Below, piece after piece: positions 12,319 to 62,819 of a stretch of DNA of 64,000 nt. The stretch is from Nitrospirota bacterium. Its GTDB lineage: Bacteria > Nitrospirota > Thermodesulfovibrionia > Thermodesulfovibrionales > SM23-35. Position 1 is the stretch's first letter; each line of letters starts with the position of its first letter. The DNA lies in assembly GCA_013388455.1 (NCBI GenBank), contig JACAFF010000040.1, positions 65,990-129,989 on the forward strand. Direction: 5' to 3'. The position numbers and the translations under genes are program-made. A model generated the notes under the pieces. It saw only the letters and a program-made list of their open reading frames with translations, was not told the origin of the DNA and searched no databases.

Positions 12319-13365
12319 GTGGAATGGGATTTTTTGGTTTTGATTTTTAGGAGACCAATGCAACAGAGGGGATTCACTTTTACCAAGAAACCCTTTCTTT
12401 ACAAAGGATCGATAAATTCCTCCTTGGTAATCTATCCGATAAATGATAATGGACAGAGAACAGGTACAATGCTTTTTATTGACAACAAAACAATAAAATT
12501 TATAAAGAATGCTATTAAAGAAAAAGGCATAATTCAAATGGGTGCTTGTCGTGATAATCCGCCACCTAATTCACTTGGGAAAATGCTTCAGGGGATGGGT
12601 AAATCTCCTCAGTTTCTAAGTTATGTCTTGCCTCTTTTAGAACAAGAAGGTTTTTTAACCTCTTATAAGGAAGGAAAAGCTTTTTGGGTTAAAAAAACTG
12701 CTTCTAGAGAAATAAATTCTATAAATAAGACCCAGATAGATGGAAAAGGTGATATTGAAATTCCTGATAAAGACGAATTCATAAAGGGCTGTAATGCTTT
12801 TAAAAAGCGTGAGAAGCGTGATTCTATGTATAAAGTTGCCACATTCTTAGTTAAACATTTTTGGGGTAGTCCAAGAGATATGTCCGATGCATTAGGAATT
12901 TTATTATTTACATGGAACCACGCATTCTATAGATATGGCTTGTTTGACTATGACAAGCTCGAAAAGTGTATAAAGAATAACATCCCAAAACTTGAAGAGT
13001 TCAGAAATAGAAATATTTTTAATTTAAAGAGAGATGACGAAAGAGACATCAAAAACCTTTTCAATAACTTTCATAAAGCGTTACAAATAAGTGAAGGGAG
13101 ATTAAAAGGCAAATCAAGCCCGGTAGCAGTCTCAAAAGCTCTGCACCTATTAGCTCCTGACTTTTTGCCTCTTTGGGATAATAAAATAGCACAAGCCTAT
13201 GGATGTTACTATTCTGTAAACCCTGCTGAAGAATATGTTAGATTTTGTAGAATAGTAAAAGCTATTGCAGAACAAGTAAAAGATTTCATATCTCCAACTG
13301 ATAAGACTATTCTCAAGTTAATTGATGAATACAATTATTCAAAATACACTCAGGAATGGATTTAA
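12319..13365 (+). CDS. Uncharacterised protein coupled to hsdM (R-M-linked ORF)
   Basis: 348-aa ORF. A more likely start is ATG 12358 (AGGAG at 12349-12353), giving 335 aa. The 3' end overlaps the hsdM start by 10 nt. wHTH-like stretch SPQFLSYVLPLLEQEGFLTSY. C-terminal motif SPVAVSKALHLLAPDFLPLWDNKIAQAYG. No family recognised with certainty. Confidence 0.6.
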   Translation: MEWDFLVLIFRRPMQQRGFTFTKKPFLYKGSINSSLVIYPINDNGQRTGTMLFIDNKTIKFIKNAIKEKGIIQMGACRDNPPPNSLGKMLQGMGKSPQFLSYVLPLLEQEGFLTSYKEGKAFWVKKTASREINSINKTQIDGKGDIEIPDKDEFIKGCNAFKKREKRDSMYKVATFLVKHFWGSPRDMSDALGILLFTWNHAFYRYGLFDYDKLEKCIKNNIPKLEEFRNRNIFNLKRDDERDIKNLFNNFHKALQISEGRLKGKSSPVAVSKALHLLAPDFLPLWDNKIAQAYGCYYSVNPAEEYVRFCRIVKAIAEQVKDFISPTDKTILKLIDEYNYSKYTQEWI

Positions 13366-14897: not shown

Positions 14898-14967
14898 TTT
14901 CATTAATAGCTCCCCTCGTATTTTAGGAAGGGGTAGTAACCTGATGCATTATTTTATTTCTAAACAA

Positions 14968-15009
14968 CCACCCCTGACCCCTCCTTAATCAAGGAGGGGA
15001 GTTTGGAGA
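14968..15009. repeat. GC-rich nested-palindrome (REP-like) element, copy in the hsdM-hsdS spacer
   Basis: Inner palindrome CCCCTCCTT-AATC-AAGGAGGGG at 14978-14999 (9-bp arms) with degenerate outer arms (CCACCCCT ... AGTTTGGAG). A second weak hairpin CCCCT...AGGGG lies at 14912-14933. Confidence 0.6.
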
Positions 15010-15038
15010 AGGCTGACTCAAAATGAGAATGGGACGAA

Positions 15039-16364
15039 ATGAATAATTCAAACGGCTTCAGAATGACAGAGATAGGATTATTGCCGGAAGACTGGGAAGT
15101 GAAGAAACTGAATCAGTTGTTTGAAATACAGCAGGGTAAAGCATTATCGCCAAAACACAGAAGGGGTATATCACCGTATCCATTCTTAAGAACATCAAAT
15201 GTTTATTGGGGCAGGATAGATTTAACAAATTTAGATTACATGGATTTCTCTACAGAAGAAGTTGATAAAATGGCATTAAGGACTGATGATTTGCTTATTT
15301 GTGAAGGTGGTGATATAGGGAGAACAGCAATGTGGTCAGGTCAAATTAAAAAGTGCTGTTATCAAAATCATCTTCATCGCCTGAGACCTTTAAGAAAAAA
15401 TGAAGCATTCCCCAAGTTTTTTATGTATTGGATGCAAGCCTCTATGTTACTGCTTGGATTATATGTTGGTGCAGGAAATAAGACAACAATTCCAAATCTT
15501 TCAAGAGCGCGATTAGGAGAGTTTCAGCTACCATTACCTTTCTTCTCCGAACAACAAAAAATTGCCTCTGTTCTTTCAGCCGTACAGGAAGCAAAAGAGA
15601 AAACTGAAAATGTCATTAAAGCATTAAAGGAATTCAAGAAATCCATGATGAAGCATCTTTTCACCTATGGACCTGTGCCTTACCCCCCTTCATCCCCCCT
15701 TAATAAGGGGGGAATAGAGGGGGGTGTGCCTTTGAAAGAGACAGAGATCGGGATGATTCCTGAGCATTGGGAAGTGAGTATGCTTGGCAAATATTGCAAG
15801 GTCTTAACTGGTGGAACTCCAAAAACTAAAGTTAAGGAATATTGGCTTCCTGCTGAAATCCCATGGATGAAATCAGGTGAAATTCAGGGTAGTGTTATAA
15901 CTAAAATTGATACATATATATCAAAAAAAGGGTTAGAAAATTCAAATGCAAGGCTTCTACCTAAAAATACCGTTGTGATTGCCCTAGCAGGAAGGGGGAA
16001 AACAAGAGGTACAACGGCTATTCTAAAGACAGAATGTGCATGTAATCAGTCTGTAGCTTGTATGATCTCTAATGAACAACTCCACTATTATTATCTTCAT
16101 TACTATCTTTCTTTTATTTACGTTTATATAAGGAATCTTACTGGTGATAAAGACAGAAGTGGTTTGAACCTACAGATAATACAGAGAATACCTCTTATTC
16201 TTCCTCCTCTCACTGAGCAACATCAGATTGCCGAATCTTTATCAGCCATTGATAAAAAGATAGAAGCTGAAAATACCAAGAAGAATTCGTTAGAAGCTCT
16301 TTTTAAAACTTTGCTTTCTCTTTTAATGACAGGTAAAATTAGGGTCAAAGACCTTGATATATAA
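15039..16364 (+). CDS. hsdS: Type I R-M specificity subunit (two target-recognition domains)
   Basis: Two repeats of the TRD entry motif (IGLLPEDWEVKKL and IGMIPEHWEVSML). Conserved coiled-coil regions (SEQQKIASVLSAV..., TEQHQIAESLSAIDKKIE...LLSLLMTGKIRV). Confidence 0.85.
   Translation: MNNSNGFRMTEIGLLPEDWEVKKLNQLFEIQQGKALSPKHRRGISPYPFLRTSNVYWGRIDLTNLDYMDFSTEEVDKMALRTDDLLICEGGDIGRTAMWSGQIKKCCYQNHLHRLRPLRKNEAFPKFFMYWMQASMLLLGLYVGAGNKTTIPNLSRARLGEFQLPLPFFSEQQKIASVLSAVQEAKEKTENVIKALKEFKKSMMKHLFTYGPVPYPPSSPLNKGGIEGGVPLKETEIGMIPEHWEVSMLGKYCKVLTGGTPKTKVKEYWLPAEIPWMKSGEIQGSVITKIDTYISKKGLENSNARLLPKNTVVIALAGRGKTRGTTAILKTECACNQSVACMISNEQLHYYYLHYYLSFIYVYIRNLTGDKDRSGLNLQIIQRIPLILPPLTEQHQIAESLSAIDKKIEAENTKKNSLEALFKTLLSLLMTGKIRVKDLDI
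15674..15731. repeat. Nested-palindrome (REP/MITE-like) element inserted in frame in hsdS, flanked by direct repeat (T)GTGCCT
   Basis: Element 15681-15725 is TACCCCCCTTCATCCCCCCTTAATAAGGGGGGAATAGAGGGGGGT. Outer arms ACCCCCCT/AGGGGGGT; inner 10-bp arms TCCCCCCTTA/TAAGGGGGGA. GTGCCT occurs at 15675-15680 and again at 15726-15731. Element plus one repeat = 51 nt = 17 codons (YPPSSPLNKGGIEGGVP). Confidence 0.7.
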
Positions 16365-16388
16365 GGGTGAATTAAAAAGAGAAACTGA

Positions 16389-16697
16389 ATGCTATTTGTA
16401 GATTACGAAGGAAGGAACATAAGATTATCTGAGGAACGGTGGAAACATATTCAAGAAAGACATCCCGAAACAGTTGGCAAGGAAAAATTTATTGAAGAAA
16501 CAATTTCGATGCCTGATTTCATACAGGAGGGAAATAAAGGGGAATTGATAGCAATCAGAAAGTATAAAAAAACCCCAATTACTGAAAACAAGTATTTTGT
16601 TGTAGTATATAAATTACAAAAGACAGATGGTTTCCTCATTACATCATATTTCACAAGGAGACCGTCTTTCAGGAGGAAATTGATATGGAAAAAATAA
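16389..16697 (+). CDS. Small toxin-like protein (H-x2-RHPE motif; family uncertain)
   Basis: 102 aa: LSEERWKHIQERHPE...ISMPDFIQEG....IAIRKY....KYFVVVYK...GFLITSYFTRRP. Overlaps the next ORF by 13 nt. Lies between hsdS and hsdR. Confidence 0.5.
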   Translation: MLFVDYEGRNIRLSEERWKHIQERHPETVGKEKFIEETISMPDFIQEGNKGELIAIRKYKKTPITENKYFVVVYKLQKTDGFLITSYFTRRPSFRRKLIWKK

Positions 16698-16921
16698 AAC
16701 TTCCACAGGGTAAAACTGTAAACAGCTACTACGACGAGGAGGCAGATGTTCTTTATGTGTCCTTTGGAGAACCTAAGACAAGTGAAACTCTGGACACAGG
16801 AGAGGATTTGTTGATTCGCTTTGATCCTGTTACAGGGGAAATTACAGGGTTTACTATTCTCAATTTTTCAGAGTTCGGGCAGGAAATTGAAGAATTGGTC
16901 AGTGCAACTGCAACACGTTAG
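16685..16921 (+). CDS. DUF2283-family small protein (putative antitoxin partner)
   Basis: YYDEEADVLYVSFGEP...LIRFDPVTGEITGFTILNFSEF matches the DUF2283 pattern (YDxEADxLYI ... GxIxGIEIL). Confidence 0.65.
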   Translation: MEKIKLPQGKTVNSYYDEEADVLYVSFGEPKTSETLDTGEDLLIRFDPVTGEITGFTILNFSEFGQEIEELVSATATR

Positions 16922-16934
16922 AATACTTTAAACA

Positions 16935-19832
16935 ATGCCGTTAGGCAACGAAAGACAATCTGTTCAAAATCCCCTTATAAAATACACTGCCGAAATCAAC
17001 TGGACTTACATAACACCCGATGATGCTCTGAACTGGAGATGTGGAGAGACAGGGCTTGTCTTCAGAGATACCTTTATTACCCAACTACAAAAGCTCAACG
17101 CTTTCATGACCCAGAGCCTTTCTGAGGAACTGCTAAAGAAAATAGAAACACTCCCGTCAAACATTGAAGGCAACCTTTCAGCATGGGAATACCTCAAGGG
17201 GTTAAAGCAGGTCTTTGTCCCCGATGAAAAGAGAGAAAGAAATGTCAGGTTCATAGATACAGAAAATATATATAACAACACCTTTCATGTCACCGATGAA
17301 TTCAGCTTTACTAATGGCAGGAAGACAATACGGGCAGATATTGTGTTCCTAATCAATGGTATCCCAGTCTTTATTGCAGAAACAAAATCAGCTCATAAGA
17401 TTAATGGCATTGCAGAATCCCTTGACCAGATACGGAGGTACCACAATGAAGTCCCTGAGATTATGGCTATACTGCAGATATATGCCCTTACTCATCTAAT
17501 CCGTTATTACTATGGAGCGACTTGGAACACCATAAGAAAGGGTCTTTTCAACTGGAAGGAAGAACAGGAAGGAGACTTTGAAACTCTCGTAAAATCCTTC
17601 TTTGACAAAGAAAGGATAATCAGAATCCTAAATGACTTTATTCTGTTTACAAGGCAGGATGATGAACTTAAAAAGGTAGTTCTAAGACCTCATCAGATGA
17701 GGGCAGTGCAGAAGATTATTTCACGTGTTGAAGATAAAGCCAAAAAGAGAGGCTTAATATGGCATACGCAGGGGTCAGGGAAAACTTATACCATGATTGT
17801 AGCTGCCAAAGAGATAATCGAAAATCCACTGTTTGATAATCCCACCGTCATCATGCTTATAGACAGAAATGAACTTGAATCACAGTTATTTGGAAACCTT
17901 TCATCTGTTGGTTACACACAGAAAGAATTGGAAGAAATAGAGATACAAAGCAAAAGAGATTTACAGAAAGCCCTTCAGGAGGATAAAAGAGGTCTGATTG
18001 TATCAATGATACATAAGTTTGAGGGGATGCCAGAGAATATTAATACGAGAGATAATATTTTTGTCCTTGTTGATGAAGCCCATAGAACTACTGGAGGAAA
18101 ATTAGGTAATTACCTGATGGGAGCTTTGCCCAATGCTACCTATATCGGATTTACAGGAACACCAATTGATAAGACATCATATGGTAAAGGCACATTCATA
18201 ACATTTGGCATAGATGATCCACCAAAGGGCTACCTTGATAAATATGGTATAGCTGAATCAATAGAGGACAACACCACCGTTCCCCTTCACTATACCCTTG
18301 CACCTAACGAGCTTCAGGTGGATAAGGAAGTCCTCAACAGGGAATTCCTCGAGCTTGCCGATGCAGAGGGAATAAGTGACATTGAGGAATTGAATAAAGT
18401 CCTCGAAAGGGCTGTTAATCTGAAAAACATGCTCAAGAAAGAAGAACGCATGGAGAAGATAGCCAAATACGTTTCAGACCATTTCAAAGAATATGTAGAG
18501 CCAATGGGATATAAGGCTTTTCTTGTTGCTGTGGATAGAGAAGCCTGCACTATATATAAACGTATGCTCGATAAACATCTCCCAGTTGAATACTCAAAAG
18601 TTATAATCAGTCCAGGTTTTAATGACCCTGTTGAATTATCAAGGTTTCATCTAACTGAAGAAGAGGAGAAGAGAATAAGGGTCGCATTTAGAAAACCTGA
18701 TGAACTACCCAAAATACTTATCGTAACGGAGAAACTTTTAACAGGCTTTGATGCTCCAATTCTTTACTGCATGTATCTGGATAAACCTATGCGTGACCAT
18801 GTGCTCTTACAGGCAATAGCACGGGTAAATAGACCCTATGAGGATGGGGAAAGCAGAAAGAAACCTTCTGGATTTATCCTTGACTTTGTAGGAATATTCG
18901 ATAATCTCGAAAAAGCCCTTGCATTTGACTCGTCAGACATTAAAGGAATTGTTCATGACATTGAGATTTTAAAGACAAGGTTTGCCGAACTAATGGAACA
19001 GGCAAAGAGTAATTATCTGCGCCTTATCAAAGATAAATCACAAGATAAAGCAGTTGAGGTAGTTCTCAATCATTTTATGGATGAAGAAACAAGGCATGAG
19101 TTTTATACTTTTTTTAAGGAAATAGCAGATATCTATGAGATACTATCTCCTGATGCCTTTTTGAGACCTTACATAAATGATTATGAAACATTAACGAGGT
19201 TCTACAGAATATTGAAAGAGGCATATGATCCAGGTATTTCTATCGACAGGGACTTCTTAAGGAAAACAGTAAAGCTCGTTCAGGAACATACTGAGAGTGG
19301 AGCAATAAAACCAGCCCTTGAGATCTATGAGATTAATGAGGAAACCTTAAAGAAGATTGAAGAAAGCAAGGCATCAGATACAGAGAAAATATTTAATCTT
19401 ATAAAAAGTATCACAAAGACTATCCAAGAGAATGTTGATACTTCACCATATCTTATATCTATTGGTGAAAGGGCGGAAGAAATTGCAAGGCTTTTCAAAG
19501 AGAGACAGCTCACAACGCAGAAAACTCTGGAAGAACTTAAAAAGATTATAGAGGAGATTAATTCAGCAAAAAAAGAACAAATAGATAAGAATATGCCTGT
19601 TGAGGTCTTTGCTACTATGTGGCTGTTCAAAAAAGAGGGTGTCGTCAATGCTGAAGAAAATGCGATACAGATGAAAAAGGCTTTTGAGCAATACCCTCAT
19701 TGGAAAACAAGCGAGGCTCATCAGAGAGAGATTACTAAACAGTTTTATAAAATCTTGGTCAAAGCAGGTATAAAGAATTGCGTTGATATTGTTAAAAAGG
19801 TAATGCGGATATTGACAGGGAGGACAAGATGA
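16935..19832 (+). CDS. hsdR: Type I restriction enzyme R subunit (helicase-nuclease)
   Basis: 965 aa. N-terminal nuclease region (ADIVFLINGIPVFIAETK), Walker A HTQGSGKT, DEAH box VDEAHRT, helicase C motifs (TGFDAP, QAIARVNR). Confidence 0.9.
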   Translation: MPLGNERQSVQNPLIKYTAEINWTYITPDDALNWRCGETGLVFRDTFITQLQKLNAFMTQSLSEELLKKIETLPSNIEGNLSAWEYLKGLKQVFVPDEKRERNVRFIDTENIYNNTFHVTDEFSFTNGRKTIRADIVFLINGIPVFIAETKSAHKINGIAESLDQIRRYHNEVPEIMAILQIYALTHLIRYYYGATWNTIRKGLFNWKEEQEGDFETLVKSFFDKERIIRILNDFILFTRQDDELKKVVLRPHQMRAVQKIISRVEDKAKKRGLIWHTQGSGKTYTMIVAAKEIIENPLFDNPTVIMLIDRNELESQLFGNLSSVGYTQKELEEIEIQSKRDLQKALQEDKRGLIVSMIHKFEGMPENINTRDNIFVLVDEAHRTTGGKLGNYLMGALPNATYIGFTGTPIDKTSYGKGTFITFGIDDPPKGYLDKYGIAESIEDNTTVPLHYTLAPNELQVDKEVLNREFLELADAEGISDIEELNKVLERAVNLKNMLKKEERMEKIAKYVSDHFKEYVEPMGYKAFLVAVDREACTIYKRMLDKHLPVEYSKVIISPGFNDPVELSRFHLTEEEEKRIRVAFRKPDELPKILIVTEKLLTGFDAPILYCMYLDKPMRDHVLLQAIARVNRPYEDGESRKKPSGFILDFVGIFDNLEKALAFDSSDIKGIVHDIEILKTRFAELMEQAKSNYLRLIKDKSQDKAVEVVLNHFMDEETRHEFYTFFKEIADIYEILSPDAFLRPYINDYETLTRFYRILKEAYDPGISIDRDFLRKTVKLVQEHTESGAIKPALEIYEINEETLKKIEESKASDTEKIFNLIKSITKTIQENVDTSPYLISIGERAEEIARLFKERQLTTQKTLEELKKIIEEINSAKKEQIDKNMPVEVFATMWLFKKEGVVNAEENAIQMKKAFEQYPHWKTSEAHQREITKQFYKILVKAGIKNCVDIVKKVMRILTGRTR

Positions 19833-20577: not shown

Positions 20578-20652
20578 TGGTAGGCGCGAAGGGGATTGAA
20601 CCCTTGGCCTCTTCCGCGTCAAGGAAGCGCTCTCCCACTGAGCTACGCGCCT
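20578..20652 (-). tRNA. tRNA-Val (anticodon GAC), CCA encoded
   Basis: The reverse complement folds as AGGCGCG-TA-GCTC-AGTGGGA-GAGC-G-CTTCC-TTGACGC-GGAAG-AGGCC-AAGGG-TTCAATC-CCCTT-CGCGCCT-A-CCA. Full cloverleaf with T-loop GTTCAATC. Confidence 0.95.
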
Positions 20653-47863: not shown

Positions 47864-49297
47864 TTAGAAGAGCCCTTTGATTGCTTCTTTGGCAAAATTT
47901 AAAAGATATGAGGGGAATACTCCAATAAATAACACTGCAACAGTTGTTATTCCAATAACAATTCCAGTGCCTGGAGATTTTGTAAGTGTTACTTCCATCT
48001 TTGGATCACGCATATACATGAACATTACTATTCTGAGATAGAAGAATGCAGATATAGCACTGAAAATAACAGCAATTACAACAAGCCACGTATAACCTGC
48101 GTTGATGGCAGCAAGAAACACATAGAGTTTACCAATAAAGCCTGCTGTTGGAGGTATACCAGTTAGGGAAAACATAAATATAAGCATAAGGGCTGCTGCC
48201 AGTGGATGATGTTTTGCCAGTCCTTCATAATCATGAATATTTTCACCCCTGAAACCCTCGCTTCTCAACATGATAATCACAGAAAACGCGCCAATATTCA
48301 TAAAAGCATAAATCATTAAATAGTTCATCATACTTGCAATGCCTTCATTGTTTGCTGATATTACGCCGAGCAGCGCATATCCCGCATGGGCAATTGAAGA
48401 GTATGCAAGCATCCTCTTTATATTTGTCTGTGAAAGAGCAACAATATTTCCAATACCCATAGTTAGAATTGATAAAATAGCGAGTATTGTTGTCCAGTCC
48501 AATTTAACAGATGCAAAAGCTATCATAAAGACCCTACCAAGAACAGCAAAACCAGCGGCCTTTGGCCCAACCGACATAAATGCAGTTATTGATGTAGGTG
48601 CTCCTTCATAAACATCTGGGGCCCACATATGGAAAGGAGCAGCTGCTATCTTGAAACCGAATGCGACTGTAAGCATAAGCACAGACAGCAACAGAGCTGA
48701 GTTACTACTGAGACCTTCTTTCTCACTGATAAAAGCTGCTATCGCACTGATATCAGTAGTGCCTGTTAATCCGTAAATGATTGATATGCCATACAGCAGG
48801 AAGGCTGATGAAAATGCTCCAAGGAGGAAATACTTCAATGCTGCTTCACTTGAACGTGCTTCATGCCTTATAAAACCAGCCAGCACATATGTGCTTAGAG
48901 CCATAAGCTCAAGGCCAAGATATAGCACAATAAGGTCAGCAGCAGAAGCCATTATCATCATGCCTATAGTCGAAAATAAAATAAGACTGTAATATTCTCC
49001 ATAATTTACTTTTTCGATTATGATATATTTCATTGAGATTAAGACCGACAGAATCACATTGATAAAGAAAATAAATTTAAAGAACATACTATATCCATCA
49101 GCAATATACATTCCTCCAAAGGTAGCACCGGATGAACCAACGAGTGACAATGCTATAAGTGCAACTCCTGCAATACTGACTAATGCAACAATTTCCTTTC
49201 TCTTTATGAGAAGATCAATAAGCAGTATAATCAGAGCAAAAGCAGTCATGAGAATTTCAGGCATTACAGGACCAAGATTGGGAAGAGGAAAGTTCAT
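47864..49297 (-). CDS. nuoN: NADH-quinone oxidoreductase subunit N
   Basis: Proton-antiporter-like, about 14 TM helices. Last gene of the nuo operon. Confidence 0.9.
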   Translation of the reverse strand: MNFPLPNLGPVMPEILMTAFALIILLIDLLIKRKEIVALVSIAGVALIALSLVGSSGATFGGMYIADGYSMFFKFIFFINVILSVLISMKYIIIEKVNYGEYYSLILFSTIGMMIMASAADLIVLYLGLELMALSTYVLAGFIRHEARSSEAALKYFLLGAFSSAFLLYGISIIYGLTGTTDISAIAAFISEKEGLSSNSALLLSVLMLTVAFGFKIAAAPFHMWAPDVYEGAPTSITAFMSVGPKAAGFAVLGRVFMIAFASVKLDWTTILAILSILTMGIGNIVALSQTNIKRMLAYSSIAHAGYALLGVISANNEGIASMMNYLMIYAFMNIGAFSVIIMLRSEGFRGENIHDYEGLAKHHPLAAALMLIFMFSLTGIPPTAGFIGKLYVFLAAINAGYTWLVVIAVIFSAISAFFYLRIVMFMYMRDPKMEVTLTKSPGTGIVIGITTVAVLFIGVFPSYLLNFAKEAIKGLF

Positions 49298-50835
49298 CTG
49301 ATTACTACCTCCATAATAGTTTTTGCTATATTTGCTTCTTGAGTAGTTGCTAAACTGAGCCTTTCTAAAAGATGTTCAACTGAAACATGCATAAAACTAA
49401 GAAAAGAGTTCGGATATAAACCAATCCAGAATACGAGAAATATCAATGGCACAAGTGTTAATGTTTCTCTTACATCCATATCAGGTAATCCAATTACTTT
49501 TGGATTCGTTGCCATAAAGAAAACCTTTTGATAAAGCCAGAGCATGTACCCAGCACCAATAATAACCCCTGTAGCAGCAAGAACACCGACTAACTTATTT
49601 GCAGTAAATCCACCGAGTAGGATAAGAAATTCGCCAATAAATCCATTGGTCAGTGGAAATCCGATTGATGCAAGTGTAAATACCATAAAAAATGCTGCAT
49701 ATATAGGCATATGCGTCGATAGTCCACCATAGTCTGCAATCTGCCTTGAATGCGTCCTATCGTAAACCACACCAACACTCAAAAAGAGTGCACCTGTTAC
49801 AACACCATGATTAAGCATCTGTAAAATACCACCTTCAAGTCCCTGGCTATTTAAGGCAAAAATACCAAGTGTTACAAATCCCATATGACTTACAGAACTA
49901 TATGCAATCAGTCTCTTAAGATCTGTCTGACCGAGGCAGATGACACCTCCGTAAATTATTGCAATGATAGAAAGTGTTAACATAATAGGTGTCATTGCTA
50001 CCGATGCATCAGGGAAAAGATGAAGCGAGAACCTAAGAAAACCATATGCTCCCATCTTGATTAGAATAGCTGCAAGAATGACACTTCCTGCTGTAGGCGC
50101 TTCAGTATGAGCATCAGGCAACCATGTATGCACTGGCCACATTGGAACCTTTACCGCAAAAGCTGCAAAGAACGCCCAGAAAAGCCAAACCTGCATTGTG
50201 TATGGATATGATTTTGTAGCCAGTTCAAGAATGTCAAACGTCCTCCCTGCATAAAGATAGAGAACGATAATTCCGACAAGCATCAGAACACTTCCGACTA
50301 ATGTATAAAGGAAAAACTTTATAGCAGCATATATCCTGTTCGGACCTCCCCAGACTCCGATGATAAGGAACATCGGGATGAGCATTGCTTCCCAGAAAAT
50401 ATAAAACAGGAAAAAATCCAGTGAACAAAAAACACCTATCATCGCTGCTGTCGTTAAGAGGATTGATATGTAAAATTCTTTAACTTTTGTCTTTATTGAA
50501 TACCAGGATATCATCACACAAAGGATAGCTGAAAGAGCAGAAAGAAGAACAAATAAAACACTAATACCATCTACTCCGAGATAATAATTGATATTCCAGT
50601 TAGGTATCCAACTATGTTTCTCCACAAACTGCATCTTATAGGTTGACTTGTCAAAATCTGTAAAAAGTGGAATCGCAAAAAGAAATGTTGCTAAAGCTGT
50701 AATCAAAGCAATCCATTTTGTAAAGGTCTCCCATGATCTTTTAAGAATAAGCAAAAAAAGAGCACCCAAAACAGGTACAAATATCACGGTACTTAGAACC
50801 GGATAACTCAATTTATTCATAATTACCTGTTCCAT
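49294..50835 (-). CDS. nuoM: NADH-quinone oxidoreductase subunit M
   Basis: Mrp/antiporter-like with WLPDAHTEAPTAGSV motif. Position between nuoL and nuoN. Confidence 0.9.
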   Translation of the reverse strand: MEQVIMNKLSYPVLSTVIFVPVLGALFLLILKRSWETFTKWIALITALATFLFAIPLFTDFDKSTYKMQFVEKHSWIPNWNINYYLGVDGISVLFVLLSALSAILCVMISWYSIKTKVKEFYISILLTTAAMIGVFCSLDFFLFYIFWEAMLIPMFLIIGVWGGPNRIYAAIKFFLYTLVGSVLMLVGIIVLYLYAGRTFDILELATKSYPYTMQVWLFWAFFAAFAVKVPMWPVHTWLPDAHTEAPTAGSVILAAILIKMGAYGFLRFSLHLFPDASVAMTPIMLTLSIIAIIYGGVICLGQTDLKRLIAYSSVSHMGFVTLGIFALNSQGLEGGILQMLNHGVVTGALFLSVGVVYDRTHSRQIADYGGLSTHMPIYAAFFMVFTLASIGFPLTNGFIGEFLILLGGFTANKLVGVLAATGVIIGAGYMLWLYQKVFFMATNPKVIGLPDMDVRETLTLVPLIFLVFWIGLYPNSFLSFMHVSVEHLLERLSLATTQEANIAKTIMEVVIR

Positions 50836-50869
50836 CTCACTCCCTTATAAATTTTATAATGTGTCATGT

Positions 50870-52789
50870 CTATAACCATATGAGTGCAATCAAAATAATC
50901 ACAACCGCACCAGCAGCCATCATAATTCCATAATGATGGGTCAGTCCTGTCTGGATTCTCCTTAATTTTCCGCTGAAAATGCCTATCAATTTTGGAACAC
51001 CATTGACAACTCCCTCAATGATCTTTGCATCAGTGAAGCCTACAAGCACCCTTCTTGCTATAAAAATTGTGGGACGCACAATTATTAGATTATAAAGTTC
51101 ATCAACGTAATATTTGTTAAACAGAATGTTGTAAATTATATTGAAATTCTTAGCAAGAATGAGAGGTATCTGTGTCTTTTTAAGATAAAAGATAAAAGCA
51201 ATTACAATACCAGTAACAGCTATAGTTGTTGAAGTACCCATAATCCTGAATTCTTCAGCATGTGTGCCGTGAAACTCTGGATGACCCACTACAGGCTCAA
51301 GAAAATGGGCAAAATGTGCACCGCCTCCGAGGACAGGAGGAATTCCAATCCATCCACCTGCGACAGCACCAACAGCCAGTAATATCAGGGGAACTGTCAT
51401 AACTGCAGGTGACTCGTGTAAATGATGTTCTTCATGGTGAGTCCCGCGGAACTTACTATGGAAAGTAAGGAATATCATCCTGAAAGAGTAAAAAGGAGTA
51501 AAGAAAGCAACACATGTCATCAGGACCCATACAAATTTACTAACATCTGTATGAGCAGCATATGCTGACCATACTATTTCATCCTTGCTGAAGAAACCTG
51601 CCAGTCCAGGTATTCCACCAGCGCTTAGCGCAGCAACGAACATCACAGCGTATGTAATTGGCATGTATTTTTTGAGACCACCCATCCTTTGAACATCATT
51701 GTGATGAACAGCATGTATAACACTCCCTGCACCCAGAAAGAGAAGCGCTTTGAAAAATGCATGAGTATAAAGATGGAATACACCTGCTGCGTATGCACCG
51801 ACGCCGCAAGCAACAAACATCATACCAAGATGGCTTAATGTTGAATATGCAATAATTCTCTTAATATCATTCTGGACACAGGCTATTGTAGCTGCAAATA
51901 CTGATGTAATTCCACCTACAATAGCAACTACATTCATAGCTGTTATGGAAAGACTGAAAATAGAATTACACCTTGCCACCATGAAAACTCCAGCAGTAAC
52001 CATGGTTGCTGCATGGATAAGAGCGCTGACAGGGGTAGGACCCTCCATGGCATCAGGCAACCACACATGGAGTGGAATCTGTGCGGATTTACCAACAGCA
52101 CCACAGAAAAGCAGCAATGCAATTAATGTTATTAAATCTACCTCAAGTCCGAGGAAGTTCACTGTATGACCTATATAATTTTTTACACTTGAGAACACAG
52201 GCTCATAGTGGATTGTACCAAACGTTAAGAATACCATGAATATACCAAGAGCAAATCCAAAATCACCGAACCTATTGACAATAAATGCCTTTTTCCCTGC
52301 ATCTGCTGCTGCTTTCTTTTCATACCAGAAACCAATCAAAAAATATGAGCAGAGACCAACACCCTCCCATCCGACATAAAGCTGAAGGAAGTTATTCGAA
52401 GTTACAAGCATCAGCATAAAGAAAACAAAAAGACTCAAATAAGCAAAGAACCTGTAATATCCCTTGTCCCCGTGCATATATCCAATTGAATATATATGTA
52501 TAAGAGAACCTACACATGTCACTACAATAAGCATCACAGCAGTAAGGGGATCAATAAGGAAACCGATTGATACCTTGAAATTGCCTGAAACTATCCATGT
52601 ATATAAATCTTCATTAAATACTTTTCCGTTGATGACATCGAAAAGAGCGAATACAGACAGGACAAAAGAGCCTATGATGGCAAGACAGGAAGGCCAATGC
52701 GCCTTATCCCTCATAACTTCTTTGCCGAGCAAGATATTAATTATAAAAGCTAATAATGGTAGAAAAGGTATTAAAACATAAGCTCCCAT
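50870..52789 (-). CDS. nuoL: NADH-quinone oxidoreductase subunit L
   Basis: 639 aa, WLPDAMEGPTPVSALIHAATMV motif, and a C-terminal lateral-helix extension. Confidence 0.9.
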   Translation of the reverse strand: MGAYVLIPFLPLLAFIINILLGKEVMRDKAHWPSCLAIIGSFVLSVFALFDVINGKVFNEDLYTWIVSGNFKVSIGFLIDPLTAVMLIVVTCVGSLIHIYSIGYMHGDKGYYRFFAYLSLFVFFMLMLVTSNNFLQLYVGWEGVGLCSYFLIGFWYEKKAAADAGKKAFIVNRFGDFGFALGIFMVFLTFGTIHYEPVFSSVKNYIGHTVNFLGLEVDLITLIALLLFCGAVGKSAQIPLHVWLPDAMEGPTPVSALIHAATMVTAGVFMVARCNSIFSLSITAMNVVAIVGGITSVFAATIACVQNDIKRIIAYSTLSHLGMMFVACGVGAYAAGVFHLYTHAFFKALLFLGAGSVIHAVHHNDVQRMGGLKKYMPITYAVMFVAALSAGGIPGLAGFFSKDEIVWSAYAAHTDVSKFVWVLMTCVAFFTPFYSFRMIFLTFHSKFRGTHHEEHHLHESPAVMTVPLILLAVGAVAGGWIGIPPVLGGGAHFAHFLEPVVGHPEFHGTHAEEFRIMGTSTTIAVTGIVIAFIFYLKKTQIPLILAKNFNIIYNILFNKYYVDELYNLIIVRPTIFIARRVLVGFTDAKIIEGVVNGVPKLIGIFSGKLRRIQTGLTHHYGIMMAAGAVVIILIALIWL

Positions 52790-52838
52790 ATACTCAATCC
52801 TTATACTTCATAATAATATTGAAAGTCCTTAATTTTTA

Positions 52839-53141
52839 TCATCCCTGCATCTCTTTTACTTCATCAACATGTGCAGTCGCCTTATTCCTGAACAAAGCTA
52901 TTACTATAGCTAAACCTATGGCTGCCTCAGCAGCTGCCACTGCAATAATAAAGAAAGCAAGTATTTGTCCCCTCAAATCCTGCAAATAATGGCTGATTGC
53001 GATAAGGTTAATATTGACAGCATTTAGCATCAATTCTATAGACATAAACATCAAAATTATATTCTTTCTCGTAAGGAACCCAAATACACCAATCGTAAAG
53101 ACCGCTGTACTAAGGAACATATACCAGCTTAATGGAACCAT
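52839..53141 (-). CDS. nuoK: NADH-quinone oxidoreductase subunit K
   Basis: 100 aa, 3 TM helices, AAAEAAIGLAI motif. Confidence 0.9.
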   Translation of the reverse strand: MVPLSWYMFLSTAVFTIGVFGFLTRKNIILMFMSIELMLNAVNINLIAISHYLQDLRGQILAFFIIAVAAAEAAIGLAIVIALFRNKATAHVDEVKEMQG

Positions 53142-53144
53142 TTA

Positions 53145-53657
53145 TTAACTTTTAAGCCTCCTTTTTGCAAGCACTATAGCGCCTATAATAGCAATTAAAA
53201 GTATTACTGATACTACTTCAAAAGGATAAAGATACTTGGTATATAATAATTTCCCCAAAACCTTAACATGTGATTCCTGTTGTATCATTTCGATCGTATA
53301 TTTACCAGGTGGAGCAGCTACAAATGACCTCAACGATAAAATAATCATAACAAATAGTGCTAAAGCAAATGTAAAACCTGCTGTCCATGCACCAATGAAT
53401 CTTCCAATTTTAAGCTCTTCAGTTATATTTAATAAGAGAACAACAAAAAGGAAAAGAACAAGTATCCCACCAGCATAAACTATTACCTGTATAGCTGCCA
53501 TAAATTCAGCATTTAAAAATAAATAGATACTGGCTATATGGAAAAACAGCAGGAGCATCCATAGAACACTATGCACAGGGTTTTTCCGAGTTATAACAAG
53601 AATTGATAATATAACGATTGCAGAAGCAAAGTATGCAAAAAATAATACTGGAATCAT
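53145..53657 (-). CDS. nuoJ: NADH-quinone oxidoreductase subunit J
   Basis: 170 aa, 5 TM helices. NPVHSVLWML and QVIVYAGGILVLFLFV motifs. Confidence 0.9.
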   Translation of the reverse strand: MIPVLFFAYFASAIVILSILVITRKNPVHSVLWMLLLFFHIASIYLFLNAEFMAAIQVIVYAGGILVLFLFVVLLLNITEELKIGRFIGAWTAGFTFALALFVMIILSLRSFVAAPPGKYTIEMIQQESHVKVLGKLLYTKYLYPFEVVSVILLIAIIGAIVLAKRRLKS

Positions 53658-54187
53658 GAGCTTTTTCCTTTGAAAGTTGCCTGTCCTGGAGGCATTTCAA
53701 AATCCTCAGATAGAGGCCTCCAGAACTTTCTGAAATATTCCTCGCCTTTTTTGCCCGGCATGTATTTATCCCAGTTAGCCAGAAGTTTCTCCTTTGTCAT
53801 ATATAAATCTTCTTTTTTATATACAGAATATTCATAATTTTCTGTGAGGGATATTGCACCATAAGGACATGCTTCAACACAGAATCCACAAAAAATACAT
53901 CTCAAAATATCTATCTCATACCTTGTTACTTTTCCCTTCTCTCTATAAATTTGAATACATTGAGAAGGGCACATGGTAGCGCAGAGACCACAACCCACGC
54001 ATTTTGCCTGACCAGTCTGAGGATGTTTAACAAGAGCATGCTGTCCTCTGAATCCTGGAGCGATTTGTCTCCGTTCCTTTGGATACTGGATAGTGACTGC
54101 ATGAGAGAACAACCTGCTTAGTGTTAAAGCCATTCCCTTAAGTATTTCGTAAAATGTGATCTTCTTCACGAACTGTTTAACAGTCAC
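53654..54187 (-). CDS. nuoI: NADH-quinone oxidoreductase subunit I (2 x [4Fe-4S])
   Basis: CVGCGLCATMCP and CIFCGFCVEACP motifs. Confidence 0.9.
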   Translation of the reverse strand: MTVKQFVKKITFYEILKGMALTLSRLFSHAVTIQYPKERRQIAPGFRGQHALVKHPQTGQAKCVGCGLCATMCPSQCIQIYREKGKVTRYEIDILRCIFCGFCVEACPYGAISLTENYEYSVYKKEDLYMTKEKLLANWDKYMPGKKGEEYFRKFWRPLSEDFEMPPGQATFKGKSS

Positions 54188-54199
54188 ACTTTTCTCCTT

Positions 54200-55222
54200 T
54201 TATAAAATAAGCTTTACTAACCCTGTAACAACTATATTAGCCAATGCCACGGGAATCAATATTTTCCATCCTATAGCCATTAGCTGATCATACCTGTATC
54301 TTGGCACAGTCGCTCTTATCCAATAATAGAAGAATATAAATGCATAAACTTTAATCAAAAACCAGACTATTCCTGGCACATGCGATAGAAATGGTAAAAT
54401 TTTAATAATATACCATGGTAACGTCCATCCCCCGAGGAAACATACTGCACATAGAGAAGACATAATAAACATTGCAATATACTCGCCAAGGAAGAAAAGG
54501 GCAAAACGGAAACCACTATATTCAACAAAATAACCTGCAACAAGTTCACTTTCTGCTTCTGGCAAGTCAAAAGGAGTTCTATTTGTTTCGGCAACTGCTG
54601 CAATCACAAAGATTATAAAAGCAACAAATTGAGGGATCACATACATGCCAAATATTGAATTTTGCTGTGCCTTTACTATCTCATTCAAATTAAGAGAACC
54701 TGCCATAATCATCACTCCGACAAGGCTCAATCCCATTGCTATTTCGTAACTCAGAACTTGTGCAGATGAACGCAAACCACCTATAAAAGCATATTTAGAG
54801 TTTGATGCCCATCCTGATATAAATATCCCATATACACCAATTCCTGCTATAGCGAAAATGAAGAGTAATCCTACGTTGATATCAGCAATAAAGAAATTCT
54901 GAGAAAAGGGTATAACAGAGAGATTTACCATAGCAGAAGCCATAAATATAACCGGGGCAAGATAAAATACAGCCTTGTCCGAATTTGCAGGAAGTATGTC
55001 TTCCTTAAAGAATAATTTTACTCCGTCAGCAATAGGCTGAAGAAGTCCATGAGGACCAACACGCATAGGGCCGAGCCTTACCTGCATGTGCCCAATTACT
55101 TTTCGTTCAAAATATGTTGCATATGCTACATGGAGAAGGGTTACTCCAAGAACAACTGCAATTTTGACAATAATAATAAGAACTTCAATACCGAATTTGA
55201 TCAATGTATCAGTTGTTATCAT
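54200..55222 (-). CDS. nuoH: NADH-quinone oxidoreductase subunit H
   Basis: RKVIGHMQVRLGPMRVGP.GLLQPIADG.KL signature; 8 TM helices. Confidence 0.95.
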   Translation of the reverse strand: MITTDTLIKFGIEVLIIIVKIAVVLGVTLLHVAYATYFERKVIGHMQVRLGPMRVGPHGLLQPIADGVKLFFKEDILPANSDKAVFYLAPVIFMASAMVNLSVIPFSQNFFIADINVGLLFIFAIAGIGVYGIFISGWASNSKYAFIGGLRSSAQVLSYEIAMGLSLVGVMIMAGSLNLNEIVKAQQNSIFGMYVIPQFVAFIIFVIAAVAETNRTPFDLPEAESELVAGYFVEYSGFRFALFFLGEYIAMFIMSSLCAVCFLGGWTLPWYIIKILPFLSHVPGIVWFLIKVYAFIFFYYWIRATVPRYRYDQLMAIGWKILIPVALANIVVTGLVKLIL

Positions 55223-56700
55223 TATCTATCACACTCTCCAAGAACTATATCAATTGTTCCTATATTTGCTATAACATCTGCAACCAGATGTCCTACACAG
55301 AGTCTCGGTAAAACACCTGCATGGACAAACGATGGTGCTCTTACTCTCATTCTGTAAGGTTTTCCTGATCCATCACTAACAAAATAAAAACCCAATTCGC
55401 CCTTCGGCACTTCGGTTGCTACATATACGTCTCCCTCTGGCACCCTTGGACCTTTCTTAATATAATTAAAATGCTCTGCAAGTAATTCAGTAGCCTTTTT
55501 AATCTCTTCTGGAACTGGTTGACTTGATAGCTCGGCAAGTTTTTCATCGCTAAGGCCCTTTCCACCTGGAATAATCTTTAATGCCTTGAACTTACATGTC
55601 ACATAACAGTTCATGCAGCTCAAACATAACTCCTGATTTATCTTATGCGGTTTTTTCTTTTCACCAGTAATTGCCTTAGCAGGGCAAGCTCTGAGGCACA
55701 TCCCACATCCCTTGCATACCTTTTCTTCAATAAAAAATGCATGCTGCTTGTTTGGATTAGTAACTGGCATCATTGCGTCTTTTGGCTGAAGGACAAACTT
55801 TGGAGCATCTGCCATTATAGGACCTGGAGGTAATTTATCGAGGCATTGTCTGATGATCATATTCGATTGTCTCATTTCAAGCATCCTGCAACGGTATCTA
55901 TCATATGTATCACCAGCAGTACCAATAGGGACTTCAAATTCAATCTTATCGTATGCGTCATACGGAGCAAATTTTCTCACATCATAAGCTACTCCCGATC
56001 CTCTCAATGTTGGACCAGTCAGTCCCCAGTTTACTGCTTCCTCTGCCGATATAACTCCTATCCCAACTGTTCTCTTAAGCCATATCCTATTCTGGTCAAT
56101 CAGGGTTTCATATTCCAGAATCCTTGACGGAAACTCTTCTGTAAATTTATACAGGCTATCTATAAATTCCTTTGAAATATCATTCCTAACTCCGCCGATT
56201 CTCGGATAAGTAACTGTAAGTCTTGCGCCGCAAATCTTCTCAAAGAGCTCAAGTATCCATTCCCTTTCTCTGAAGCAATACAAAAATACAGTCATTGCCC
56301 CGATATCGAGAGCATGAGTAGCAAGCCAGAGGAGATGGTTCGATATCCTGGACATCTCTCCAACGATGGTCCTGATGAATTTAGCCCTTTCAGGTGCCTC
56401 AATTCCAAACAGCTTTTCTACTGCTACACAATATCCGATATTGTTTGACATTGCCGAAACATAATCCATCCTGTCTGTCAATGGAAGCGCCTGAAAATAA
56501 CTCAGACTTTCTCCAAGTTTCTCGATACCACGATGTAGATAACCAACATAGGGGGTTACTTTTACAATTGTCTCGCCATCTATTTCAAGAACAAGCCTCA
56601 AAACTCCATGAGTAGCAGGGTGCTGAGGCCCCATATTTACATTCAGTTCACGAGTCTCAAATATCTTTTCAGCCTGTTCCACTTTATCCTTCCCACTCAA
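55222..56700 (-). CDS. nuoD: NADH-quinone oxidoreductase subunit D carrying an internal ~90-aa ferredoxin-like (8-Cys) insertion
   Basis: The flanks are canonical NuoD ([15 protein letters not shown] ... [25 protein letters not shown] ... [10 protein letters not shown]). Residues ~311-402 contain [12 protein letters not shown] and [11 protein letters not shown]. 492 aa total. Confidence 0.9.
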
Positions 56701-57274
56701 ACTCTTTTAATTCTTTTGCTTTATTTAGAACCTCAACAAAACCAGGCCACTCTTTCTCAGGGGCAGGTCCCTTCAGCGGATAATCTTTTCTCAAAGGATG
56801 CCCTTCCCAATCTTCAGGCAATAAAATTCTACGCAAATCTGGATGCCCTGAAAAAACGATACCGAACATATCATAACATTCTCTTTCATGCCAGTTAGCA
56901 CCTGCCCAGATTGGAACAACAGATCTAATCTTAGGGTCATTATCAGGAACCTGTGCTTTCACACGAATCCGATGACGATATCTTGTTGAAAGAAGGTTAT
57001 AGACAACTTCGAATCTGTTCTCTTTTTTCCCCTGGTAATCAACTGCGGTAAGGTCTTGAAGATGGTCAAAAGACAGATGAGGCTCATCATGAAGATATCT
57101 ACAAATATCAAATGCCTTACCCCGCTTTATAATTATTGAGACCTGATCTCTAAAATTAGTTACTTCAATAACTTCATCAGGAAACTTCTGTTTTATTTCT
57201 TCAGCGATCTCTGCAGGATCTAATCCCTTATCTGTTAATGATATTTTCCGTAATACTACCGCCATGGGCTCCAC
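56684..57274 (-). CDS. nuoC: NADH-quinone oxidoreductase subunit C
   Basis: LTAVDY...FEVVYNLLS...R.RVK...  ..[28 protein letters not shown] signature. Confidence 0.9.
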
Positions 57275-57777
57275 CTTGCCTTTTCATTTCTTATTTTTTC
57301 CTGAAGCATCATCATTGCCTCAAGCAATGTCTCAGGTCTTGGAGGACAACCAGGCACATATACATCAACTGGGAGAAAAGAATCACAACCCTGGACAGTA
57401 CTATAAGTTCTAAAAATACCGCCTGTGCAAGCACAACTGCCCATTGCTACAACATATCTTGGTTCTGGGATCTGGTCGTATACTCTTCTTACAACAGGTG
57501 CCATTTTCTTTGTTACTGTCCCTGCTACGATAATACAATCAGCCTGTCGAGGAGAACCTCTGAATATAATGCCAAACCTATCGAAATCGTAATGTGATGC
57601 GCCCACGGCCATCATCTCGATGGCACAACAAGCAAGTCCAAATGTCGTAGGCCAGATAGAAGATAACCTCCCCCAATTTATGAGCTTATCAAATGTTGTA
57701 ATAATAAGATTAGGAGGTAATACTTTTACATCTTTCTCAACTTCAACCAGGCCAATTGTAGATGTGTCTAATATCAT
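57256..57777 (-). CDS. nuoB: NADH-quinone oxidoreductase subunit B
   Basis: [18 protein letters not shown], and PGCPPRPE (N2 cluster ligands). Confidence 0.95.
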
Positions 57778-57796
57778 ACGTTACCTCTCAGTTTAA

Positions 57797-58168
57797 TTAA
57801 TCCCATTGAAATGCTTCTTTTCTCCAGGCATAAATATAACCGATTAAAAGGATAACGATAAATATGACCATTTCGATAAAAGCAAATATCCCTATCATAT
57901 CAAAAACAATAGCCCAAGGATAGATAAATATTGCCTCAACATCGAAGATAACGAAAAGCATAGCTATTATGTAAAATCTAATTGAAAACCTATACCTCGG
58001 TTCTCCAACAGGCGTAATACCTGATTCATATGGCATAAGCTTTTCAAAATAAGGTTTTTTCAATCTGAAGATATAACCAATGATGAGGGCGCCCAAGCCA
58101 AAAGCAGACGCTATAATAATGAAAATAAGTATCGGCAAATATTCTGATGGTATATACGTTCCAGGCAT
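57797..58168 (-). CDS. nuoA: NADH-quinone oxidoreductase subunit A
   Basis: 123 aa, 3 TM helices, YESGI.P.G......F...FY..A.LFVIFDVE motif. Confidence 0.9.
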   Translation of the reverse strand: MPGTYIPSEYLPILIFIIIASAFGLGALIIGYIFRLKKPYFEKLMPYESGITPVGEPRYRFSIRFYIIAMLFVIFDVEAIFIYPWAIVFDMIGIFAFIEMVIFIVILLIGYIYAWRKEAFQWD

Positions 58169-58276: not shown

Positions 58277-61417
<3,141 letters not shown>

Positions 61418-62208: not shown

Positions 62209-62291
62209 TCTTTACCTTGTTATGGATACAGGCCTTTTTGGATTGATACCTTCCTTTCATTTAAACTATTTAATATTTACTGTTGTTAACG

Positions 62292-62384
62292 GAGGGGTGC
62301 CAGAGTGGTTGAATGGGACGGTCTCGAAAATCGTTTCTCCCGTAGCCCGGGGGACGAGGGTTCGAATCCCTCCCCCTCCGCCAT
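62292..62384 (+). tRNA. tRNA-Ser (anticodon CGA), long variable arm, CCA encoded
   Basis: GGAGGGG-TG-CCAG...; anticodon arm ACGGT-CTCGAAA-ATCGT; long variable arm; T arm GAGGG-TTCGAAT-CCCTC; acceptor CCCCTCC-G-CCA. Confidence 0.9.
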
Positions 62385-62396
62385 AAAGGATATTCT

Positions 62397-62819
62397 CTAT
62401 TTCGGCACCCATACTTTCCCCTTATCAATAATATGCTCCACTATCCATCCTCTTTTTTGTAGTTCTCGAGCAATCCATCTTCTATGACACTTCCAGGGGA
62501 ACTTCTCTGCACAGATAATGACAGAGTTTTTCTGTTCTGCAATAGATTCAAGAAGTTCAATACCTTTAATAAATTCATCAGTGATGATGTAAGAAACATA
62601 GCCTCCCTTTCTGAATCCCCCCAGTTCTTTGCCGAGATAGTGATAATCTATGCCTTGCTGTATTAAAAGATTTTCAAGATTTTCCTTGATATATATTGTT
62701 ATTCTACTTCTCGGAAAACTGCGGACGTCTATTAATGACTGAATACTGTAAGCAAGGAGAATCTCTATGAAATCTTCTTCAGTCCTCCTGTCAGTTCCGA
62801 GAGTGTAAATTTTTTTCAT
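62397..62819 (-). CDS. DUF488-family protein
   Basis: KIYTLGTDRRTEEDFIEIL....IQSLIDVRSFPRSR ... YHYLGKELGGFR ... CAEKFPWKCHR matches the DUF488 pattern. Confidence 0.75.
   Translation of the reverse strand: MKKIYTLGTDRRTEEDFIEILLAYSIQSLIDVRSFPRSRITIYIKENLENLLIQQGIDYHYLGKELGGFRKGGYVSYIITDEFIKGIELLESIAEQKNSVIICAEKFPWKCHRRWIARELQKRGWIVEHIIDKGKVWVPK

Follow-up and report, generated by a model that had tools for sequence, protein, structure and literature searches.

A dicluster ferredoxin-type domain nested in NuoD of an 11-subunit complex I from Nitrospirota, with apparent ancestry in electron-bifurcating BfuB subunits

Nested domain architecture of NuoD

The window analyzed here, a stretch of 64,000 nt from the Nitrospirota assembly GCA_013388455.1 (order Thermodesulfovibrionales; contig JACAFF010000040.1, positions 65,990 to 129,989), encodes a NuoD protein, i.e., the 49-kDa subunit of complex I, which carries a nested insertion of the 2x[4Fe-4S] type. 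The corresponding gene (55222..56700, minus strand) belongs to an 11-gene operon, nuoA-B-C-D-H-I-J-K-L-M-N (47864..58168, minus strand), deduced from open reading frames (ORFs) and profile annotation and extending from nuoA (57797-58168, minus strand) to nuoN (47864-49297, minus strand). In agreement with the initial annotation of this DNA, which had been made from the sequence alone, nuoE, nuoF and nuoG are missing, as no homologue of their products is encoded in the operon or elsewhere in the window. The order nuoABCDHIJKLMN is found in the window and in 20 loci.

The nuoD ORF comprises 492 aa when read from TTG 56700, and residue numbering throughout refers to this version, which overlaps nuoC by 17 nt. 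As the public record NWF76809.1 ("MAG: Nitrospirae bacterium", MAG denoting a metagenome-assembled genome; 100% identical) and the homologues begin at GTG 56682, directly after the nuoC stop, the true start is probably six codons downstream, resulting in 486 aa. The NCBIfam profile TIGR01962 (NuoD) matches with 548.9 bits against a cut-off of 459.35 in two separate stretches, and the Pfam profile PF00346 (Complex1_49kDa, E=6e-114) likewise matches in two. When searching the PDB with phmmer, aa 15-310 and 398-492 align with 49-kDa/Nqo4/NuoCD chains (E about 1e-130), and the middle segment alone matches the C-terminal dicluster domains of HydB/NfnB/HoxF-type subunits (7p5h_B, E=1.6e-12); the NuoD fold match reaches target-normalized template-modelling scores (TMt) of 0.7-0.77. 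The quinone-site residues H31, Y80 and D132 are invariant among 121 sequences and show a constant offset of 8 from H23, Y72 and D124 of NdhH, the equivalents of Thermus Nqo4 H38, Y87 and D139 (PMC6992706). The nested architecture with canonical N- and C-termini as initially proposed is thus confirmed, the extra block expected at about aa 311-402 (55495-55770) being placed by alignment at aa 312-401.

This insertion of 90 residues (55498..55767, minus strand) was delimited by the columns gapped in more than 90% of 49 close insertion-less NuoD sequences and by the junction alignment. It starts with a conserved N-terminal linker (aa 312-323; 55732..55767, minus strand) of the clade consensus P-I-T-H-P..., in which P312, T314, H315 and P316 are kept in 62-71 of 72 sequences and the ratio of nonsynonymous to synonymous differences per site (pN/pS) is 0.30. 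The ferredoxin-like core (aa 324-378; 55567..55731, minus strand), defined by Pfam/NCBIfam matches, an AlphaFold2 (AF2) model and Foldseek, is strongly basic, with a net charge of +7, as are its relatives in BfuB proteins. The eight-Cys dicluster signature noticed in the initial annotation is present as Cys motif 1, C329-x2-C332-x2-C335-x3-C339-P340 (aa 329-340; 55681..55716, minus strand), with the four Cys and the Pro in 72/72 sequences, and Cys motif 2, C359-x2-C362-x2-C365-x3-C369 (aa 359-369; 55594..55626, minus strand), followed by K-F-K as in BfuB domains. The C-terminal linker (aa 379-401; 55498..55566, minus strand) is acidic and predicted to be helical at 385-392, and a second predicted helix starts at 398 and continues into the NuoD helix, forming a continuous helix 398-416 in the AF2 model. 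A scan with Fe-S profiles, one of the checks proposed initially, resulted in several matches above the gathering thresholds, namely PF00037 (38.0 versus 21.1 bits) and PF12838 (Fer4_7; 29.1 versus 27) at aa 322-373 as well as PF12837 (35.4 versus 25) and PF13237 (28.1 versus 25.5) on the insert, where PF14697 stays below threshold (31.3 versus 35). Judged by motifs and profiles, the insert can be assigned to the bacterial dicluster ferredoxin superfamily, and its core, modelled with a predicted local distance difference test score (pLDDT) of 80-91 (AF2, aa 308-405), is predicted to bind two [4Fe-4S] clusters.

Distribution, conservation and authenticity

A full-length protein search revealed about 70 distinct 90%-identity clusters sharing this architecture (79-90% identical, 486-505 aa), all annotated at source simply as "NADH-quinone oxidoreductase subunit D". 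Scanning one genome per GTDB species gave 22 insertion loci, all from MAGs and, save for one Nitrospinota, labelled Nitrospirae, Nitrospirota or Thermodesulfovibrionales. Insertion-bearing NuoD is rare, as it makes up a single 50%-identity cluster: among 1.84 billion 50%-identity representatives searched with HMMER, only P0121 (88% identical) spans the insertion in one stretch. A search with the 68-aa core alone returned just six short fragments. The over-long NuoD sequences inspected among the 150 best representatives (P0195, P0221, P0240, P0231, P0156 and P0166) were rejected as frameshifted, read-through or low-complexity sequences not bearing an Fe-S insertion.

Within a set of 72 sequences, no or almost no variation is seen in the eight Cys, the Pro after motif 1, a GEKK..PH segment and much of both linkers. 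For 21 codon-aligned genes with saturated synonymous sites (pS about 0.75), pN/pS was 0.09 in the NuoD body, 0.17 in the ferredoxin core and 0.20 over the insert as a whole, indicating that the insert is maintained as a functional domain under purifying selection. The GC content of the inserted block (0.41-0.42) equals that of the flanks, without a shift at either junction. An artefactual fusion of nuoD with an unrelated ferredoxin gene by chimeric assembly, a concern also raised initially, or by a mis-called ORF can hence be dismissed as having a negligible probability, even though the related contig L034 resembles a mosaic broken at the insertion site and nuoD is frameshifted in two long-read MAG loci (L019 and L022), because identical in-frame junctions recur in 20 intact independent loci, across the 22 independent genome assemblies and in the about 70 protein clusters (NCBI, JGI, ENA and Logan assemblies), in addition to the uniform composition and the purifying selection.

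Origin of the inserted domain

In the first search, the matches to the insert outside NuoD were without exception fragments of NuoF-like proteins combining PF10589 with a C-terminal dicluster domain. The genome scan is in line with this result, as the loci matching by the ferredoxin part only (20/20) encode NuoF-like proteins of 620-650 aa with the architecture thioredoxin-like 2Fe-2S / FMN (Complex1_51K) / NADH_4Fe-4S / 2x[4Fe-4S], which by this composition can be assigned to the BfuB (HydB-type) subunits of Bfu-family electron-bifurcating enzymes. Within the core of 57 residues, identity between the NuoD inserts and the C-terminal domains of Nitrospirota BfuB amounts to 62-71%, compared with 77% among the inserts themselves; both groups also have in common the segment EKKKPHKI and an unusual end of motif 2, C-K-F-K. 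Moreover, a Foldseek search with the AF2 model of aa 308-405 gave BfuB chains as the seven best PDB matches, at root-mean-square deviations of 1.0-1.4 Å over 56-59 columns: NfnB of C. saccharolyticus, HydB of A. woodii and T. kivui, StnB and the B subunit of a bifurcating aldehyde oxidoreductase. The C-terminal linker shows weak similarity, 33-36% at best, to the tails of the BfuB subgroup represented by L023 and L024, which is a hint only. These comparisons identify the B3/B4 domain at the C-terminus of BfuB subunits from the same bacterial order as the donor. In Bfu enzymes, this domain carries clusters B3 and B4, constitutes the low-potential exit and reduces ferredoxin, which docks beside it with its cluster within 13 Å of B3/B4, and it works at a protein-protein interface with the C-terminal domain of BfuC (PMC12018979). 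As the NuoD host shows no Complex1_51K or NADH_4Fe-4S match in the profile scan, i.e., lacks the flavin module, the insert represents a homologous domain and not a BfuB protein. A fusion with NuoI or NuoG was rejected, as NuoI is encoded separately and intact and the insert is closer to BfuB than to NuoI.

Many Thermodesulfovibrionales possess a BfuB gene a few kb from nuoA, inside a divergently oriented cluster, so that a donor was at hand. A cut-and-paste transfer from this neighbouring gene with loss of the donor is not demonstrable, as the tail similarity is weak and L001 and L004 keep a different Bfu-like cluster.

The divergent cluster (L023, 1428-14441; L063, 4232-10258; also in L026, L045 and others) comprises genes for a HAMP histidine kinase, two or three response regulators, a response-regulator::NuoE-like fusion and a 127-aa ORF product giving no Pfam match, besides the BfuB (HydB-like) protein and an FdhA/NuoG-like molybdopterin subunit. 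One response regulator of L063 is fused to a GcvH-like domain, a second BfuB is present in L023, and nfnAB genes are embedded in the cluster in L023, L024, L026, L049 and L050. Directly upstream of the insertion-bearing nuo operon, L004 encodes a 1062-aa NuoF-like::GltD/NfnB-like fusion protein without C-terminal 2x[4Fe-4S] domain (3868-7056, minus strand), accompanied by NuoE-like, 860-aa NuoG/FdhA-like and NfnA-like genes; L001 looks similar.

Order of evolutionary events

For reconstructing the order of events, a neighbour-joining tree of NuoD from 59 loci was calculated after removing the insertion columns, and the loci were annotated by the gene following nuoD. Operons with 14 subunits, where nuoE follows nuoD, form the outgroups, and three 11-subunit operons without insertion (L030, L031 and L044) are basal to the insertion clade, in which nuoD is directly followed by nuoH in every operon with downstream sequence. 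A tree from the protein database agrees in showing one shallow clade within a ladder of insertion-less NuoD sequences, with bodies that are 87-93% identical. The basal position of the insertion-less 11-subunit operons and the 14-subunit outgroup indicate that nuoEFG was lost first and the ferredoxin domain gained afterwards, and only once.

An apparent exception on the tree is L034 (JAOUJR010000021.1), where an insertion-less nuoD (about 9000-10300) is followed by nuoE/nuoF. This gene is a mosaic, however, with aa 16-311 being 96% identical to the insertion-bearing L008 and the part 3' of the insertion site 91-93% identical to insertion-less NuoD. A secondary loss of the insertion was consequently rejected for L034, which arose either by natural recombination or as a chimera of metagenome assembly, the breakpoint falling exactly at the insertion site.

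Clade-specific remodelling of NuoI and NuoD

The initial annotation regarded NuoI as normal and separately encoded. It is indeed a separate gene product (53654..54187, minus strand) with two CxxCxxCxxxCP motifs (aa 63-74 and 97-108) for clusters N6a and N6b, but it is not quite normal, as the hairpin between the motifs (aa 75-96; 53900..53965, minus strand; tip REKGK at aa 82-86, nt 53930-53944) is shortened throughout the clade. In 18/18 insertion operons this hairpin has 22 aa and a net charge of +1 to +3, versus 26-27 aa and 0 to -4 in 29/29 operons without insertion; at the tip, TSEGEEGTKIV is replaced by REKGK-V, with a loss of five residues and a change from acidic to basic. A second remodelled element is the NuoD helix and loop 3' of the insertion (aa 402-417; 55450..55497, minus strand), where [KR][KR]GP is found in 21/21 insertion sequences versus T-K-G-P in the others, meaning that a second basic residue was gained. 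Among the operons compared, the combination of a basic hairpin tip (REKGK) and a basic loop (KKGP) is restricted to the insertion clade. Altogether, 14 clade-diagnostic changes were counted over NuoA, B, C, D, H, I, J and K, and both of those in NuoI fall on the hairpin tip, whereas two of the five in NuoD fall in the post-insertion helix. The diagnostic change V271C (DRYRCRM; nt 55888-55890) introduces a new NuoD cysteine outside the insert.

Both elements were compared with cyanobacterial NDH-1 by using NdhH and NdhI sequences from PDB alignments. The NdhH segment YIGKKLSPTFK, representing the K314/K315 region of T. elongatus NdhH, aligns with YIKKGPRV of NuoD (K415, K416 and R419), and the inter-motif hairpin of NdhI aligns with NuoI aa 75-96. 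In NDH-1, ferredoxin sits on a basic patch formed by K86, K89 and K91 of the NdhI hairpin and by K315 and K321 in the C-terminal part of NdhH, its cluster being 9.6 Å from N6a (PMC7021789, PMC6992706). According to this alignment, the remodelled NuoI hairpin and NuoD loop appear to match the ferredoxin-contact sites of NDH-1.

Possible function of the inserted domain

NuoEFG of full complex I is seated on NuoI and NuoCD (PMC8357420), a surface that is bare in the 11-subunit enzyme owing to the loss of NuoEFG. With moderate confidence, we interpret the inserted domain as a module residing beside N6a, where it would serve as a low-potential relay or docking site and feed the 11-subunit pump. Spliced into a surface loop of NuoD just ahead of the last long helix, the domain would occupy the upper end of the truncated peripheral arm and adjoin NuoI cluster N6a, which is the position of the ferredoxin dock in cyanobacterial NDH-1 and of the NuoG seat in full complex I. 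The basic domain, hairpin and loop could together provide an enlarged docking surface for an acidic ferredoxin, and reduced ferredoxin or another low-potential partner would then pass electrons to the two extra clusters placed ahead of N6a. From there, electrons might proceed via N6a, N6b and N2 to menaquinone and power proton pumping; the same wire could also run backwards, yielding reduced ferredoxin. The initial annotation had suggested an alternative entry or docking site, and this idea gains indirect support from the ferredoxin-facing BfuB origin, the gain after nuoEFG loss and the co-remodelled NDH-1-type elements, with the function itself staying at the level of inference.

Several points weigh against this interpretation. 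Sister lineages retain the 11-subunit enzyme without the domain, which is therefore not required for such enzymes, and off-pathway clusters have a precedent in complex I, namely N7 in NuoG (PMC8357420). As the insertion point is 14-18 residues (one helix, roughly 20 Å) away from the NuoD loop aligned with the NDH-1 contact, proximity of the inserted domain to N6a is rated as plausible. Domain, NuoI hairpin and NuoD loop are all basic, so that mutual packing may fail. The full-length AF2 model (pLDDT 68.5, predicted template-modelling score 0.60) is too weak for placing the domain on NuoD. Finally, since all carriers are MAGs, the case rests on comparative genomics.

Some of these points would also fit a borrowed Fe-S domain that only caps the NuoD/NuoI surface exposed by NuoEFG loss and thereby stabilizes the arm, with clusters being off-pathway or needed for the fold only. 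N7 is the accepted precedent here, lineage-specific extensions in E. coli mainly enlarge inter-subunit contacts (PMC8357420), the conserved linkers suggest a fixed packing and the weak full-length model would be compatible with such a cap. We nevertheless consider a structural role of this kind unlikely, as the core is strongly constrained, with all eight Cys invariant, the donor was specifically a ferredoxin-facing low-potential Bfu domain and insertion-less 11-subunit relatives persist uncapped; moreover, a pure cap would need none of the co-occurring changes that render the NDH-1-type ferredoxin patch more basic.

Alternatively, the BfuB-type graft might plug the pump into a dehydrogenase module, either an NfnAB-like pair or Bfu-type NuoE/NuoF/FdhA proteins, thus rebuilding an NAD(P)H or formate head. 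This appears distinctly unlikely. The window and at least 12 of the 22 insertion loci do have nfnAB genes in divergent orientation to nuoA, the donor BfuB gene of relatives clusters with nfnAB beside nuo, and the Bfu B3/B4 domain acts at an interface with the C-terminal domain of BfuC. However, nfnAB also adjoins insertion-less operons (L030 and L034) and is absent from other insertion loci for which 10 kb upstream are available, where pntAB (L007) or restriction-modification genes and lpxK (L009) are found instead, and inspection of the locus neighbourhoods revealed no gene strictly co-occurring with the insertion. NfnAB was hence rejected as a strictly insertion-specific partner, being present beside insertion-less and missing beside several insertion operons.

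Even more doubtful is a purely reverse operation, in which proton motive force and menaquinol would drive ferredoxin reduction to supply CO2 fixation or further low-potential reactions, with the inserted clusters as exit port. Autotrophs occur in Nitrospirota, and the homologous Bfu domain reduces ferredoxin, whereas no carbon-fixation genes were seen nearby and nothing in the window bears on direction. Complex I chemistry is described as reversible (PMC8357420), and the sequence cannot tell reverse operation apart from the preferred feeding of the pump.

A broader scenario, to which we assign a low but appreciable probability, is a lineage rebuilding the input head of its complex I from spare parts. 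The graft would then lengthen the wire by two clusters and represent a socket for an Nfn- or Bfu-type partner or a tethered, possibly mobile "captive ferredoxin". If true, the lineage would represent an extant intermediate stage of modular complex I evolution and show directly that NuoEFG-less Nuo complexes are fed from the ferredoxin pool.

Comparison with known systems

The insertion-bearing enzyme is most similar to ferredoxin-dependent NDH-1 and to the plain 11-subunit Nuo complexes of anaerobes. Like the insertion-bearing operon, cyanobacterial and chloroplast NDH-1 lacks NuoEFG and contains the 11 conserved Nuo-type subunits, with N6a of the NuoI homologue as the point of electron entry (PMC7021789, PMC6992706); the hairpin and loop altered to basic in the insertion clade are homologous to elements of NDH-1. 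In contrast to NDH-1, which binds a free [2Fe-2S] ferredoxin with the aid of the extra subunits NdhS, NdhV and NdhO, the insertion clade has a covalent 2x[4Fe-4S] domain inside the NdhH homologue itself; NdhS/V/O-like genes were not seen in the operon, no search having been aimed at them. The best sequence and fold match to the insert is provided by the B3/B4 domain of BfuB (HydB of HydABC, NfnB of NfnABC and StnB), but the latter forms the C-terminus of a flavoprotein and passes bifurcated low-potential electrons to ferredoxin, whereas the insert is nested in NuoD of a membrane proton pump and has no flavin module.

Plain 11-subunit Nuo/Fpo-like complexes, as in sulfate reducers, Chlorobi and Methanothrix, have the same subunit set, and the sister operons L030, L031 and L044 are of this type; they differ by an ordinary NuoD of about 400 aa without extra clusters. 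For such complexes of anaerobes, ferredoxin oxidation has been proposed while the donor question is considered open (PMC3144371, PMC4453560). Fe-S sites or peptides added to core subunits have precedents in N7 of NuoG and in lineage-specific extensions (PMC8357420), but N7 is an ancient remnant of the N-module far from the main chain, while the insert is a recent gain in the Q-module that would be located next to the entry end of the chain. The fused NuoCD and NuoBCD proteins likewise illustrate varying domain architecture among the subunits of the connecting module (PMC4453560), yet these are end-to-end fusions of complex I subunits and not a nested foreign redox domain.

A full-text literature search did not reveal any prior description of such a NuoD, and the names in databases do not flag the insert. 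The 49-kDa subunit is otherwise free of cofactors and highly conserved, for which reasons the finding should surprise the complex I specialist; to our knowledge, this is the first redox-cofactor domain nested in it. The electron donor of many bacterial and archaeal NuoEFG-less complex I-like enzymes is a long-standing question, and we know of structural evidence on how such enzymes are fed only for photosynthetic NDH-1. Here, evolution may have labelled the entry site by placing a ferredoxin-exchanging domain in NuoD and co-remodelling the NDH-1-type patch. Furthermore, with 14-subunit, 11-subunit and 11-subunit-plus-domain operons at 83-93% NuoD identity, a single order offers a natural series suited to studying loss, replacement and wiring of respiratory input modules.

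Gene neighbourhood and other features of the window

Divergent to nuoA and separated from it by a 108-bp spacer, the window encodes an nfnA-like and an nfnB/gltD-like gene of the NfnAB/SudAB type (58277..60551, plus strand), which belong to the neighbourhood only and are not insertion-specific. The NfnA/SudB-like protein comprises DHODB Fe-S and NAD-binding domains, and the NfnB/GltD-like one Fer4_20 and Pyr_redox_2. Between both ORFs as listed there is an overlap of 68 nt, the true start of nfnB probably being located near 59148. In L007, pntA/pntB encoding a membrane transhydrogenase (4803-7590, minus strand) occupy the place of nfnAB divergent to nuoA, and genes for a multihaem cytochrome c and a cytochrome b561-type protein are found further upstream.

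Elsewhere in the window, an exopolysaccharide export and assembly block (394-7669, plus strand) encodes a beta-barrel porin-like protein, a Wza-like Poly_export/SLBB protein, a GNVR/ParA-type chain-length regulator kinase and a Wzy_C O-antigen-ligase-like protein with TPR repeats. The genes hsdM, hsdS and hsdR of a complete type I restriction-modification system (13356-19832, plus strand) are preceded at their 5' side by a 348-aa ORF (12319-13365) giving no Pfam match. Two tRNA genes are present, tRNA-Val(GAC) at 20578-20652 (minus strand) and tRNA-Ser(CGA) at 62291-62383 (plus strand), and the 60-aa ORF at 62305-62487 is the latter tRNA translated as protein.

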